UHGV virus genome: UHGV-1734872
Strand: one strand, 5' to 3'
Origin: a virus
DNA length: 14,126 bases
Shown here: in pieces, positions 4,590-14,126 of the stretch
Layout of the letters: every line of letters starts with the position of its first letter
Position numbering within the stretch: position 1 is the stretch's first letter
Translations under genes and position numbers: made by a program
Notes under the pieces: model-generated
What the model saw: the letters and a program-made list of their open reading frames with translations, nothing else
The model's database searches: none
Told to the model about the DNA's origin: nothing

Positions 4590-5453
4590 ATGGAAGAATC
4601 TAAAAGAATACGCCAATTAAAAGAAAACCTCATAAAGGAACTACCTTTCTTTCCAAATGAAAAATCAATACGCACTGAACTAGAAAATCAAAGTTTAAAT
4701 GGGGTTTTAATCGCTTACCTCCACTGGAAAACAAGAATTGTGCCGACCCGCAGAAGGAGAGTTCATATATATCCAGAAGTAACGAGCGATAAAAGATGGA
4801 AAGAACTAAAACTTGGTATTCATGGGTTACTGGATAAGGTCAGAAAAGGTGAAGACTTATACCCTCATCTTTCATTGCGCGCACATAAGTATGGCTACAC
4901 TCCTGTTGAAAGAATTCGTAATGGAGATGCTGATTCATGGGAAGACAAAGATCAGTTATTAAATACGAAAGGTTTTCATCATTTTCATTTGAGCATGAAT
5001 ATTCAAAGTACAGGCTTGGCCGAAAGGACAAATAATGTTCTTTTTGCCTTCGTTTCTCGCGACCAGTTTCGTGCTGTGGGGATATTTGATCATAGTGTAT
5101 TTGATAAACCCGATAGTTTAAATGGCATGACTGAGGAACGTGAAAGAATGTGGACCCTGCATGAAAAATACATCACATTCGGAATGAAAGCTGGCACAGT
5201 GTATATAAACAATCTGATAACAGCATCCGGGCATCCTGTAAATCTTATCATGCTCGCCGATCGTTATGCTGCAATCATCCGAGAATATGACCAGAAGGCG
5301 GAAGACAGAATTTTTGTAAATGAGCTTTATGCTCAAAGCCCACTTCCCTCTCCAGAAAGGTTTAAATTTGAGTGGCGCATAGAGGGTTTGGATCTTGTTC
5401 TTTTTGATAAAAAAAACAGAGTGGCCTTTAACGTCTACAAAGCTCACATTTAA
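4590..5453 (+). CDS. Hypothetical protein of unknown function; AT-rich moron on the strand opposite the phage late genes
   Basis: 287-aa uninterrupted ORF in DNA of roughly 35-40% GC (two 60-nt lines counted by hand gave 33% and 43%), where random long ORFs are unlikely. AGGA lies 7 nt upstream of the ATG. Flanking phage genes are about 55-65% GC. A perfect hairpin follows immediately. I recognise no family or catalytic motif. Confidence 0.8.
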   Translation: MEESKRIRQLKENLIKELPFFPNEKSIRTELENQSLNGVLIAYLHWKTRIVPTRRRRVHIYPEVTSDKRWKELKLGIHGLLDKVRKGEDLYPHLSLRAHKYGYTPVERIRNGDADSWEDKDQLLNTKGFHHFHLSMNIQSTGLAERTNNVLFAFVSRDQFRAVGIFDHSVFDKPDSLNGMTEERERMWTLHEKYITFGMKAGTVYINNLITASGHPVNLIMLADRYAAIIREYDQKAEDRIFVNELYAQSPLPSPERFKFEWRIEGLDLVLFDKKNRVAFNVYKAHI

Positions 5454-10423: not shown

Positions 10424-11278
10424 TCAGCAGTCGGTCAGCAGCTCATCGCCACCGCCGCCGCTGGCTTTCGTGCGTCGCGGCTGGCTGAAACTTTCGGTTT
10501 TATCGAGGGTGGTTTTCAGGTCGGAAAATGCCTGGCTGGTTTCTTCAACCTTGCCGGTCAGTTCCTGTTTAAAGGTGGCAAATGCGGTTTCCATATCGGA
10601 AAGGCGCTTATCCTGCGTAGTGAGGTTGGTCTGCACATGCTCGCTGACGGCGGTCACCGCTTCATGCACATCATTCATGCGCGCATCGTCGCTGACCTGT
10701 TTACGGCTGAAAATGGCTTTCACCTTATCAGTCAGGGCGGTAAATACCGTTTCCGGCTGGTCTTCAAACTCAAGCTCCGCAAGCGTTGCCGCTGAAATCA
10801 GGTTTTCAGGGTTAGCCTTAAAGCGGTTAAGCGGGTTGTTTTTTGCATTGCGACAGAATTCGAGGTATTCGGTGCCGAGGCTTGCCGGGTCATCGGTCAC
10901 AGCCAGACCAACGAGATAGCATTTGCCGGTATTGGCAAAATTCGGCTGAATTTCCATTGAGGTGTAGACCTTCTGCAATTTTTTATTCATTGCAATCAGG
11001 TCATCGGTCGGGGTGATTTTAGCGAACAACGCCCATTTGCCGTTAAGCGCAGAGTCGTCATCAATCTTCTCGGCTTTCAGCTCAACCACATCACCCAGGC
11101 GCTTAAAGTCGCCGTCAGGGAAAAGACCGCGAATATGCTCAAGATTGATGCGGCAACCGTAGACGCGCGGGTCAAACGTGTCGGCCATTTCCTGAATATC
11201 ACTGGCGCTGATAATGCGCCCGTCGCAGGTATCACCCTCGACGCCGATACGAAAGAATTTTGAGACTTTTTTTGCCAT
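10424..11278 (-). CDS. O: Capsid scaffolding protein gpO
   Basis: 284-aa ORF (P2 gpO is 284 aa as I recall), first gene of the minus-strand head operon, divergent from P. Confidence 0.9.
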   Translation of the reverse strand: MAKKVSKFFRIGVEGDTCDGRIISASDIQEMADTFDPRVYGCRINLEHIRGLFPDGDFKRLGDVVELKAEKIDDDSALNGKWALFAKITPTDDLIAMNKKLQKVYTSMEIQPNFANTGKCYLVGLAVTDDPASLGTEYLEFCRNAKNNPLNRFKANPENLISAATLAELEFEDQPETVFTALTDKVKAIFSRKQVSDDARMNDVHEAVTAVSEHVQTNLTTQDKRLSDMETAFATFKQELTGKVEETSQAFSDLKTTLDKTESFSQPRRTKASGGGGDELLTDC

Positions 11279-11443
11279 TGTCAGGAGTCCTGAGGTTAGG
11301 GTTACTGGTCAACGCCAGTTTCCAGACTCAGGGCACGCCAGACCACTAACGACGGCTGGACAATCGCCCACACAACAGCACCTTAGCGAATCACTGACGG
11401 CCATTAAGTAGCCTTGCCCTGAATCCACTACGGCGAGGCATCA
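11279..11443. promoter_or_regulatory. Divergent O/P intergenic region; expected location of the two divergent late promoters
   Basis: 165-bp spacer between divergent O and P, the established P2 location of the Ogr-activated late promoters. Contains the dyad ACTGG-N6-CCAGT (11304-11319) and a CCAGAC direct repeat (11322-11327 and 11338-11343). No canonical TGT-N12-ACA box was found by eye. Confidence 0.4.
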
Positions 11444-13213
11444 ATGACCATTTCCACCGATACAACCTTGTTGCATGACCCGCGACGACAGGCATCGCTG
11501 CTTTACTGGCAGGGCTTTTCCGTGCCACAGATTGCCGAAATGCTGCAGGTCAAGCGCCCGACCGTGCAGAGCTGGAAGCAGCGCGACGGCTGGGACGGCA
11601 TCGCACCGATTTCCCGCGTTGAAAGCAGCCTTGAGGCGCGCCTGATTCAGCTCATCGCGAAACCACAGAAGACGGGCTGTGATTTCAAAGAGATTGACCT
11701 GCTCGGGCGGCAGATTGAGCGGCTGGCGCGCGTCAACCGCTACAGCCAGACCGGCAACGAAGCCGACCTTAACCCCAACGTCGCCAACCGCAACAAAGGG
11801 GAGCGCAAAAAGCCGAAAAAGAATTTTTTCAGCGACGAGGCTATCGAGAAACTGGAGGAATTATTTTTCGACCAGTCTTTCGAGTACCAGTTGCAGTGGT
11901 ACCGCGCAGGACTGGAGCACCGTATTCGTGACATTCTCAAATCCCGCCAGATTGGTGCGACGTTCTATTTCTCCCGCGAGGCGCTGCTGCGCGCGCTCAA
12001 AACAGGCCATAACCAGATATTTTTATCAGCCAGTAAAACGCAGGCTTACGTGTTTCGCGAATACATCATCCAGTTTGCACGACTGGTCGACGTTGACTTG
12101 ACCGGCGACCCGATTGCCATCGGTAACAACGGCGCAAAACTGATTTTTCTCGGTACCAATTCCAACACCGCGCAGAGCCATAACGGCGACCTGTATGTCG
12201 ATGAAATATTCTGGATCCCGAACTTTCAGAAACTGCGCAAAGTCGCCTCGGGCATGGCTTCGCAGAAGCACCTGCGCTCGACCTACTTTTCGACACCCTC
12301 AACACTGGCGCACGGGGCTTACCCCTTCTGGTCTGGTGAGCTGTTCAACAAGGGGCGCGCCAGTGCCGCTGACCGCATCGAAATCGACATCAGTCACCGC
12401 GCGCTCGCCGGTGGTCAGCTCTGCGACGATGGCCAGTGGCGGCAGATTGTCACCATTGAGGATGCCCTTGCCGGGGGCTGCACCCTGTTCGACCTCGACC
12501 AGCTCAAACGAGAAAACAGTGATGATGATTTTAAAAACCTGTTTATGTGCGAGTTTGTCGACGATAAAGCATCGGTATTCCCGTTCGAGGAGCTGCAGCG
12601 CTGCATGGTCGATGTGATGGAAGAATGGGAGGACTTTGCCCCGTTCGCCGACCATCCTTTCGGTTCTCGCCCGGTCTGGATTGGCTACGACCCGTCGCAC
12701 ACTGGCGACAGTGCCGGGTGCGTCGTGCTCGCACCGCCGGTGGTCTCGGGTAGCAAGTTCCGCATGCTGGAGCGCCACCAATGGAAAGGCATGGACTTTG
12801 CCGCGCAGGCAGAGGGCATCCGCAAGCTGACCGAGAAATACAACGTCGAATACATCGGCATTGACGCAACCGGCCTCGGCCTCGGCGTGTTCCAGTTGGT
12901 GCGCTCATTCTACCCGGCAGCACGCGGCATCCGTTACACACCTGAAATGAAAACCGCAATGGTGCTCAAGGCAAAAGACACCATTCGCCGTGGCTGTCTG
13001 GAGTACGACGCAGGGGCAACCGACGTCACGCAGTCGTTTATGTCGATTCGCAAAACCATGACCAGCAGCGGGCGCAGCGCCACCTACGAGGCCAGCCGCA
13101 CCGAGGAAGCCAGTCACGCCGATATCGCATGGGCGACCATGCACGCCCTGTTAAACGAACCGCTTTCTGCCGGTAGCGGCATGCAGCCTAAATCTATTCT
13201 GGAGTTTAATTAA
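11444..13213 (+). CDS. P: Terminase large subunit (ATPase plus nuclease) gpP
   Basis: 589-aa ORF (P2 gpP is about 590 aa as I recall). GAGG lies 5 nt upstream. It has an N-terminal HTH-like segment (YWQGFSVPQIAEMLQVKRPTVQSW), an ATPase core with SRQIGAT, LYVDEIFW (Walker B-like) and FSTPST (coupling-motif-like), then a C-terminal region with IGIDATGLG typical of terminase nuclease domains. Confidence 0.92.
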   Translation: MTISTDTTLLHDPRRQASLLYWQGFSVPQIAEMLQVKRPTVQSWKQRDGWDGIAPISRVESSLEARLIQLIAKPQKTGCDFKEIDLLGRQIERLARVNRYSQTGNEADLNPNVANRNKGERKKPKKNFFSDEAIEKLEELFFDQSFEYQLQWYRAGLEHRIRDILKSRQIGATFYFSREALLRALKTGHNQIFLSASKTQAYVFREYIIQFARLVDVDLTGDPIAIGNNGAKLIFLGTNSNTAQSHNGDLYVDEIFWIPNFQKLRKVASGMASQKHLRSTYFSTPSTLAHGAYPFWSGELFNKGRASAADRIEIDISHRALAGGQLCDDGQWRQIVTIEDALAGGCTLFDLDQLKRENSDDDFKNLFMCEFVDDKASVFPFEELQRCMVDVMEEWEDFAPFADHPFGSRPVWIGYDPSHTGDSAGCVVLAPPVVSGSKFRMLERHQWKGMDFAAQAEGIRKLTEKYNVEYIGIDATGLGLGVFQLVRSFYPAARGIRYTPEMKTAMVLKAKDTIRRGCLEYDAGATDVTQSFMSIRKTMTSSGRSATYEASRTEEASHADIAWATMHALLNEPLSAGSGMQPKSILEFN

Positions 13214-13959
13214 TGAAAAATAACGTTTTCTCACAAAGCCAGATTCAGGCAATGACCGATATTCTGCACAATGACAGCTTTGACTATCAGGCAACATGGT
13301 TGCGTGTCGGGAAACTCAATACCGACCGCAGCATCACAAAATCGCGCCAGATTGGCGCAACGCAGCTCTTCAGTCGCGAGGCGCTGCTCGATGCGCTGAC
13401 AACGGGCGATAATCAGGTCTGGTTTGCTCACACCGTTGAGCAGGCGCGCGTGGCGCTGATGTACATGAACAACCTTTCAGCACGCGTCGGCGTCCGCCTG
13501 GCGAGTAACGGCCACAGCCTGCAGCTCGACGGTGGGGCGGTTATCAGCTTTGTCGGCGAGGAATCCCATTGCGCCGCACTGGCGGGTAACGTCTACCTTG
13601 ATGAGTTCGGGTGGTTCAGTAACCCGCGAAATGCGGCAAAAGTCGCGGCGGGTATCACCTGTCATAAGCGCCACAGACTGACGATGTTCACCTCTCCCTC
13701 TGATAATCATGACGCTTTCCGGGTATGGAATGGCACGTTCCGCAATCACCGACCGTCACCGCTAATCAATACCGGCGACAGCGTATTTTGCACAGATGGT
13801 GTCTGGCGTCAGTCGGTCACTCTGGATGCAGCATGCCAACGCGGATGCAATCTCTTTGCGCCTGAGGAAATTAAACGCGAATACAGCGACGATGATTATC
13901 GTCTGCTGTTTGGCTGCGACTGGTCTTTCGCTGTTGCAGCGGGTGAGGTGGCAGCATGA
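13213..13959 (+). CDS. Stand-alone terminase-large-subunit ATPase-domain paralog (no HTH N-terminus, no nuclease domain)
   Basis: 248-aa ORF alignable by eye to P residues ~125-375: FDYQ..W.R.G, KSRQIGAT in both, SREALL.AL.TG.NQ, VYLDEFGW versus LYVDEIFW, FTSPSD versus FSTPST, DGVWRQSVTLDAA versus DGQWRQIVTIEDA, REYSDDDYRLLFGCDW versus RENSDDDFKNLFMCEF. The ATG overlaps the P stop (TAATG) with GGAG 8 nt upstream, and its stop overlaps the Q start (ATGA). GC is similar to the surrounding phage DNA. Confidence 0.8.
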   Translation: MKNNVFSQSQIQAMTDILHNDSFDYQATWLRVGKLNTDRSITKSRQIGATQLFSREALLDALTTGDNQVWFAHTVEQARVALMYMNNLSARVGVRLASNGHSLQLDGGAVISFVGEESHCAALAGNVYLDEFGWFSNPRNAAKVAAGITCHKRHRLTMFTSPSDNHDAFRVWNGTFRNHRPSPLINTGDSVFCTDGVWRQSVTLDAACQRGCNLFAPEEIKREYSDDDYRLLFGCDWSFAVAAGEVAA

Positions 13960-14126
13960 GCAAGCGCAAGCCACGCAAAACAGTCGCCACGACCGCCAGC
14001 GCCCCGCAAAAAATGGAGGCGTTCACCTTCGGCGAGCCGGTGCCGGTACTCGATAAGCGTGACATTCTGGATTACGTCGAGTGCATCAGTAACGGCAAAT
14101 GGTACGAGCCGCCGGTCAGCTTTTCA
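13956..14126 (+). CDS. Q: Portal protein gpQ, N-terminal 57 codons (runs off the window end)
   Basis: The open frame from ATG 13956 translates MSKRKPRKTVATTASAPQKMEAFTFGEPVPVLDKRDILDYVECISNGKWYEPPVSFS, which resembles the P2 portal N-terminus from memory. GGTGAGGTGG lies upstream. It is absent from the ORF track because it is truncated by the window edge. Confidence 0.8.
   Translation, partial: MSKRKPRKTVATTASAPQKMEAFTFGEPVPVLDKRDILDYVECISNGKWYEPPVSFS

Follow-up and report, generated by a model that had tools for sequence, protein, structure and literature searches.

We analysed the UHGV virus genome UHGV-1734872, a stretch of 14,126 nucleotides (the window) that represents the late region of a 186-type P2-like prophage (genus Eganvirus) and whose positions 11000-14126 align with phage 186 (U32222) in a single ungapped match of 93.5% nucleotide identity. 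Our subject is W, an open reading frame (ORF) of 248 amino acids that lies between the gene for the large terminase subunit (TerL) and the portal gene. The three genes at this end of the window are as follows.

11444..13213, plus strand: large terminase subunit (P2 gpP / 186 Orf12 homolog), 589 amino acids with helix-turn-helix (HTH), ATPase and nuclease domains
13213..13959, plus strand: W, an ATG-initiated ORF of 248 amino acids and a stand-alone paralog of the large-terminase ATPase domain
13956..14126, plus strand: 5' part of the portal gene (P2 gpQ / 186 Orf2 homolog), which runs past the window end

The window's large terminase is 98% identical in amino acid sequence to 186 Orf12, and its portal start is 96% identical to the first 57 amino acids of the 186 portal (tblastn). 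W overlaps both neighbours, the terminase TAA running into the W ATG as TAATG (13211-13215) and the W TGA sharing ATGA with the portal start (13956-13959), and plausible Shine-Dalgarno sequences (GGAG and GAGGTG) precede the W and portal starts. Its guanine-cytosine (GC) content is 55.2%, compared to 55.5% for the whole window. A previous reading of the window from its letters alone (the sequence-only reading) had described coupled TAATG and ATGA junctions, good ribosome-binding sites and host-like GC content, and each of these observations holds. The overlaps of stop and start codons imply that W is produced in step with the terminase and the portal. Two control elements probably lie upstream of this operon.

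11384..11421, plus strand: probable late promoter of the terminase-W-portal operon (186 p12, B-dependent), by position transfer from the U32222 annotation
11357..11376, no strand assigned: probable site for the late activator B, between divergent late promoters, by position transfer from the U32222 protein_bind feature

Both positions were carried over through the ungapped 93.5% match to U32222 and are placed by position only.

By its similarity and setting, ORF 13213-13959 is an allele of the 186-type 'W protein', an already known gene. The phage 186 ortholog (AAC34147.1, U32222 1215..1961) is 92% identical in amino acid sequence and is annotated 'W protein; similar to Orf12', Orf12 being the 186 homolog of P2 P in the same record. 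The PSP3 ortholog, gp2 (AAN08364.1 in AY135486, 'similar to 186 W; similar to orf3'), is 89.5% identical. Both match the window's W in length (248 amino acids), in position between the P and Q homologs and in their overlapping junctions, and neither differs from it substantially, apart from an E131D substitution in PSP3. Across the loci compared (186, PSP3, SI22, Midge, Citrobacter and Erwinia), the orthologous group shares 89.5-95% amino acid identity over the full length of 248 residues, terminase-W-portal synteny and overlapping junctions. Phages EtG, Midge, SI22, SW9 and BIS20 also carry W, usually labelled as a second 'terminase large subunit'. The extra gene picked out by the sequence-only reading was thus already annotated in U32222 and AY135486.

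W is also the name of a genetically defined head gene of phage 186. The letter has been used inconsistently, however, so that the classical essential head gene W could be the 248-residue ORF, the portal gene or both: U32222 puts the name on both the 248-residue ORF ('W protein') and the portal ORF (/gene=W), the record of Yersinia phage vB_YpM_MDG45 (PP516624) labels its portal 'W gene; P2 Q-like', and the 'W' of AY135486 is the terminase-like ORF. No function for W is recorded in the annotations or in the full-text literature that we searched, a scope outside which the classical papers on 186 W genetics fall.

We then compared W with the terminase beside it. The sequence-only reading had aligned the ORF along its whole length with terminase residues ~125-375, and BLASTP recovered this relationship at a level far beyond chance, pairing W residues 2-237 with terminase residues 125-371 (94 identities in 248 positions, 38%, E 4e-47). 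In Pfam, W matched Terminase_6N (PF03237) only (residues 41-237, E 9.1e-24, 84.7 bits against a cut-off of 22), whereas the adjacent terminase matched Terminase_5/HTH (E 8.5e-27), Terminase_6N (E 5e-60) and the nuclease domain Terminase_6C (PF17289, E 5.5e-44). W also matched phrog_3746, 'terminase large subunit', at E 6e-123; NCBIfam contained no match for it. The Terminase_5/HTH segment, terminase residues 1-124, is absent, W starting at about terminase residue 125, and a C-terminal RNase H-like nuclease domain is likewise missing, with no Terminase_6C match in Pfam and an ORF that ends about 10 residues past the ATPase domain. The solitary Terminase_6N match bears out the previous description of W as lacking both parts. 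Because both are absent, W is, judging from its domain content, not a large terminase in the functional sense.

Structure prediction pointed the same way. AlphaFold2 run with a 20-sequence alignment gave a predicted local distance difference test score (pLDDT) of 60, and addition of terminase ATPase domains, producing a 46-sequence alignment, raised it to 91.9 with a predicted template modelling score of 0.90. The best Foldseek matches of this model were the T4 gp17 ATPase (2o0h, E 1.6e-9, template modelling score 0.67) and D6E TerL, and the P74-26 TerL ATPase domain was also matched (250-258 residues). A sequence search of the Protein Data Bank with the W profile returned no match. As modelled, W is the entire TerL ATPase domain, RecA-like core plus lid, with no further part. 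W and TerL ATPase domains did not differ in charge or isoelectric point (median 6.4 versus 6.7), and so there is no sign of a DNA mimic.

W belongs to a broad family with a fixed address. Homologs of 245-254 amino acids and 45-94% identity occur in Escherichia, Salmonella, Citrobacter, Enterobacter, Edwardsiella, Erwinia, Hafnia, Pectobacterium, Symbiopectobacterium and Yersinia. A profile search of 1.8 billion cluster representatives returned full-length terminases together with many stand-alone proteins of 222-285 amino acids, which match the profile end to end from their first residues and include proteins from Klebsiella and the betaproteobacterium Iodobacter, so that the hosts span Gamma- and Betaproteobacteria; a search with the terminase as query returned near-identical clusters only. 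In all of the approximately 60 loci inspected (15 close loci, about 42 contigs from the IMG/VR database and the loci of three distant proteins, namely Limnobaculum P0164, the metagenomic P0290 at 23% identity, and P0315), the short paralog is flanked by a complete TerL on one side and the portal gene on the other, and it abuts or overlaps each. Search matches to the terminase itself were followed directly by the portal gene. Isolated Yersinia phage vB_YpM_MLG42 (Elveevirus) carries a divergent W-like allele of 241 amino acids directly after its terminase (L102:2941-3666), annotated as a 'hypothetical protein'.

For comparisons across the family, we used 58 dereplicated W-like proteins and 74 P2-family terminases dereplicated at 90%. 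In a neighbour-joining tree, 53 of the 58 short paralogs fell into one clade that excludes all 74 terminase ATPase domains, while a perfect split between paralogs and terminases appeared in 1 of 100 bootstraps. On this tree, a single old duplication is the likely origin of the short paralogs.

Despite its fixed position, W is frequently missing. A prophage of E. coli 401651 is 99.6% identical to the rest of the window and lacks the 248-codon W exactly from stop to start, with the terminase stop overlapping the portal start directly; otherwise, only the first ~20 portal codons differ. In the isolated Eganvirus Yersinia phage vB_YpM_MDG45 (93.7% identical over the region), the terminase is also followed by the portal with no W. 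Among the 80 closest IMG/VR relatives, chosen as the contigs whose terminase nuclease domains are closest to the window's (88-100% amino acid identity), 22 have a W-like gene and 57 do not (one could not be assigned), and the two states are interleaved among contigs with identical terminase nuclease domains. The window's own W allele is present in 8 of 5426 complete E. coli genomes, 1818 of which match some part of the window, at a median of 2 and up to 7 places per matching genome. The terminase does not register whether W is present. Two terminase protein sequences are identical between W-carrying and W-less contigs, the window's terminase is one residue away from that of a W-less contig, and among 102 variable terminase sites there is none that follows the presence of W (frequencies differ by at most 0.20). 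The existence of close relatives without the gene, including an isolated plaque-forming phage, shows that W is dispensable in nature.

The one neighbouring feature that does follow W is the start of the portal. In roughly 85 loci of 186-type phages, the first ~20 portal codons read MSKRKPRK... when W is present (window 13956-14020) and MGKQKSRKAAAQK..., which is 8 residues longer, when it is absent (L016:14712-14800). This co-variation indicates that the exchanged cassette reaches about 60 nucleotides into the portal gene. We considered the portal N-terminus as a functional partner of W and rejected it, as the loci L021 and L026 have identical portal N-termini beside W proteins that are 36% identical; the co-variation therefore looks like linkage.

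The same pair of loci illustrates how whole alleles of W are exchanged. L021 and L026 are 99% identical in the terminase ATPase domain and portal compared to the 36% in W, and at the first W codon their nucleotide identity drops from 0.9-1.0 to 0.3-0.6, to climb back where the portal begins. W is thus a sharply bounded, exchangeable cassette. In IMG/VR loci L174 and L175, the terminase nuclease domain is 88% identical to the window's and the W-like gene 32-34% identical, which points to a further allele replacement. Between clades, terminases are 72-75% and portals 67-74% identical, compared to 45-53% for W, and across 51 loci, W identity averages 41% where terminase ATPase domains are 80-90% identical. 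Overall, the W protein evolves 3-4 times faster than its neighbours.

Rapid divergence is accompanied by purifying selection. Within clades, the ratio of nonsynonymous to synonymous substitution rates (dN/dS, Nei-Gojobori) was 0.12-0.37 for W (about 0.16), 0.00-0.10 for the terminase ATPase domain (about 0.04) and 0.00-0.14 for the portal. Within W, dN/dS was smallest (0.03-0.09) over residues 21-60, which hold the Q motif and Walker A, and over the lid at residues 181-240, with local values of 0.04-0.09 at Walker A and 0.03-0.07 at the C-terminal lid, and the middle part was least constrained (0.14-0.30). No sliding window among 186-type alleles exceeded a dN/dS of 0.30, and we thus found no positive selection in W. 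The proposal of the sequence-only reading that W is an old, selected paralog and neither assembly debris nor a recent duplicate is supported by ORFs of conserved length that occupy the same position at 23%-95% identity, and also by the overall dN/dS and its low values over the P-loop and lid. Real decay does occur at this locus, as in the degraded prophages of Symbiopectobacterium (L010, L011), where W is truncated. The Erwinia tracheiphila locus L004:2234-3998, from another degraded prophage, has a frameshifted terminase.

To locate the constrained residues, we mapped the ATPase motifs of W onto the window.

13285..13290, plus strand: Tyr25-Gln26, equivalent of the adenine-binding 'Q motif' (SFDYQ), from the conservation of Q26
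13339..13362, plus strand: Walker A of lambda type, K43-S-R45-Q-I-G48-A-T50, from the sequence
13591..13605, plus strand: Walker B and catalytic glutamate, V127-Y-L-D130-E131, from the sequence
13690..13701, plus strand: equivalent of the coupling (C) motif, T160-S-P-S163, aligned to S-T-P-S of the terminase
13795..13923, plus strand: C-terminal 'lid' region, D195-G-V-W-R-Q ... L-F-G-C-D-W237, from the consensus, dN/dS and the AlphaFold2 helices 204-247

We take Tyr25-Gln26 to be a 'Q motif' by analogy with T4 and lambda TerL. The motif pairs named in the sequence-only reading were all recovered: KSRQIGAT in both proteins, VYLDEFGW in W versus LYVDEIFW in the terminase, and FTSPSD versus FSTPST. 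That reading had also pointed out an Ala where T4 gp17 has Lys. The observation is correct; it is no anomaly, however, but the normal state of P2-family terminases, because the motif is of lambda type and carries its lysine at the N-terminal end (K-SRQIGAT). The corresponding Walker A motifs are KSARVGYS in lambda gpA and LSRQLGKT in T4 (PMC6379665, Table 1). A survey of Walker A across P2-family terminases, which the same reading had suggested, found the N-terminal Lys, along with the Arg, Gly and Thr/Ser of Walker A, the Walker B Asp and the catalytic Glu, to be invariant in 74 of 74.

W-like proteins vary at exactly these residues. The window's W is fully canonical (K43, R45, G48, T50, D130 and E131), as are 186 W and most close relatives, and K43, R45 and G48 are invariant within its subfamily. 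Across the family, catalytic residues are canonical in only 14 of the 58 proteins and altered in 44. Twenty-eight of these are of a 'GAD type', with Asp in place of the Walker A Thr and with Ser, Gly, Pro or Ala at the position of the Walker B Asp (K.RQ.GAD with [SGPA]E[YF]AW), and the remaining 16 are truncated or lack a canonical residue, be it the Walker A Lys, the catalytic Glu or another. A Walker A Asp always occurs without the Walker B Asp (29/29 dereplicated W-like sequences, the 29th of which also lacks the Walker A Lys and is counted among the 16 others), and the swap is found in none of the 74 terminases. This looks like relocation of an Mg2+-binding carboxylate. Since GAD sequences are probably a single clade, few origins of the swap would suffice. 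W alleles of Yersinia phages are of this type, combining D130G with T50D, and further examples are the genes L002:4001-4765 and L012:4001-4765, the W-like genes of L021-L052, and the proteins P0164, P0167, P0184 and P0198. A different change is seen in gp2 of the viable phage PSP3 (L013:3414-4160), where the catalytic glutamate, retained in the window and 186, is altered by E131D (LDDFGW); the equivalent E179D is lethal in lambda terminase (PMC6379665). As judged from these aligned residues, the substitutions show that canonical catalysis is not required across the W family.

Other positions are held almost without exception. Q26 is conserved in 54 of 56 W-like proteins and 72 of 74 terminases, and Q26, R39, R45, G48 and E56 are each kept in 53-56 of 56 W-like proteins. 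T157 and the C-terminal DGxWRQxVTxxDA...MC.W are also conserved family-wide, while S163 of the C motif is present in 47 of 58. The lid region, whose consensus across 34 diverse paralogs is DGxWRQxVTxxDA..G..L....L..E.S...F..L.MC.W, is both the best conserved part of W-like proteins and the most terminase-like. This pattern fits selection for a nucleotide pocket and a lid, not for motor-like ATP hydrolysis.

Taken together, these data lead us to favour, with about even confidence, a reading of W as an optional accessory of the packaging apparatus that acts by binding and not as a motor or nuclease. W would be translated from the late terminase-W-portal message in step with the terminase and portal, its conserved pocket would hold a nucleotide, and its TerL-like lid would dock on an invariant partner, for which the TerL ATPase ring and the portal vertex are the most plausible candidates; once docked, W may modulate or shield the packaging proteins. 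Action by binding is suggested by the fact that the nucleotide pocket and lid are the most constrained parts, and the occurrence of very different W alleles beside identical terminases and portals indicates that the partner is probably something conserved. Several points weigh against this reading. Binding of W to TerL, the portal or nucleotide is purely what we infer, as is any benefit that W gives to the phage. The window's W, which keeps all canonical residues, may be an active ATPase, and should the W ambers of 186 map here and have more than a polar effect on the portal gene, W would be essential in 186. Moreover, allele exchange and presence/absence are also expected of a conflict gene such as a decoy or anti-defence factor, and an assembly helper explains them poorly.

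The main rival to an accessory binder is counter-defence, in which W mimics the TerL ATPase domain and would soak up or blunt the bacterial immune sensors Avs1-3 and Upx as TerL is made; we regard this as unlikely, although the pattern of variation fits a conflict gene. The TerL ATPase domain is sufficient to activate EcAvs2 and Upx, and Avs2 and Avs3 read the Walker motifs, bound ATP and Mg2+ (bioRxiv 10.64898/2026.04.30.721860). W is co-translated with TerL, is present or absent between near-identical phages with whole alleles swapped, and varies exactly at active-site residues that are immutable in TerL. However, T4 vs.8, a stand-alone TerL-like ATPase, activates EcAvs2 and does not block it (bioRxiv 10.64898/2026.04.30.721860), suggesting that an extra ATPase domain could be a liability. 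In addition, no part of W reaches a dN/dS above 0.3, and PADLOC-DB contained no match at E <= 0.01 for the window's W or four divergent family members. It is rather doubtful, then, that W-like 'pseudo-terminases' at large are a widespread, exchangeable counter-measure of P2-like phages that binds or misleads Avs1-3 and Upx; if they were, their active-site freedom, including the GAD swap in half the family, would be the trace of an arms race.

The remaining explanations fare less well. The U32222 product name 'W protein', the fixed position and conserved codon overlaps across very divergent lineages, and the intact Walker A, Walker B and catalytic Glu of the window's W would all suit an essential second motor subunit, the genetically defined 186 head gene W, with mixed TerL/W rings needed for packaging. 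We consider this improbable given viable 186-type phages and near-identical prophages that lack W with TerL unchanged, and given catalytic residues that are degenerate in most family members and altered by E131D in PSP3. The name itself is ambiguous, being attached to the portal ORF in U32222 and to the portal of MDG45 ('W gene'), and an amber mutation in the W ORF would probably exert polarity on the portal gene that overlaps it. The sequence-only reading had offered two roles that are both conceivable, an auxiliary subunit of the packaging motor and a decoy that poisons the terminase of competing phages or satellites with the same packaging system. As such a decoy, W would be a weapon, poisoning the terminases of P2-like phages resident in the same host or the packaging of P4-type satellites. 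Dominant-negative action by a truncated ATPase subunit is plausible, W is optional and variable, and P2-like prophages commonly share a genome, as the multiple matches per E. coli genome illustrate. This idea is nonetheless disfavoured, and we think it quite improbable: two TerL sequences occur both beside W and in its absence, and TerL has no site that tracks W, so a producer could not spare its own terminase from the poison, and W alleles only 36% identical stand beside 99%-identical TerL and portal. Nor is there an evident satellite-specific target, and 186 carries W yet is listed among the helper phages of P4-like satellites (PMC9122126). Finally, the fast evolution of the W protein, its frequent absence and its often degenerate catalytic motifs might be those of a decaying, functionless leftover of a partial tandem duplication. 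This is very improbable indeed. ORFs of 222-285 amino acids remain intact and keep their domain boundaries in copies as little as 23% identical, from hosts among the Gamma- and Betaproteobacteria. The codon overlaps are retained, dN/dS lies far under 1 and reaches its minimum in two defined regions, and the truly degraded Symbiopectobacterium copies look different, being truncated.

Among characterized systems, P2-like TerL (P2 gpP / 186 Orf12) shares with W the ATPase domain, KSRQIGAT, Walker B with its Glu, the C motif, the lid and the predicted fold; unlike TerL, W is optional, lacks the N-terminal segment and nuclease domain, and evolves about 4 times faster. T4 vs.8 (NP_049732.1, 219 amino acids) is likewise a phage-encoded, free-standing, terminase-ATPase-like protein. 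It has no detectable homology to the W family (hhalign probability 0.3%, E 0.22) and no Terminase_6N match, however, and it sits among vs.N and small hypothetical genes between regB and denV, in a stretch whose 37 features do not include the T4 terminase and portal genes. T4 vs.8 is at most an independent analogue of W. TerI (TERi) of Listeria prophages is a small accessory protein outside the core motor, with the terminase complex and DNA packaging as its site of action (bioRxiv 10.1101/2025.02.27.640495). The likeness to W is conceptual only, TerI being unrelated to W, expressed in lysogeny and provided with dedicated self-immunity proteins, whereas W is a TerL paralog of a late operon with no partner genes.

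Elsewhere in the window, the ORF at 4590-5453 (plus strand, 287 amino acids) lies on the opposite strand to the flanking baseplate and tail genes and has a GC content of 38.5%, compared to the 55.5% of the window. PADLOC matched its residues 23-168 to the single-gene defence system PD-T4-7 (E 4.8e-9), Pfam and PHROG contained no match for it, and RefSeq lists it as a 'hypothetical protein' in E. coli 401651. This ORF is probably cargo with a defence function, inserted among the tail genes.

Annotation pipelines label W-like genes 'terminase large subunit', and many genomes consequently seem to have two. Although the gene itself has been on record since the annotation of 186, its function was apparently never worked out, and the family-level picture of position-locked, optional, exchanged and catalytically relaxed paralogs is, as far as we could find, undescribed. 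If W modulates the packaging motor, it would provide a natural tool to study the assembly of the terminase ring; if it instead counters terminase-sensing immunity, W-like proteins would represent a new class of counter-defence.

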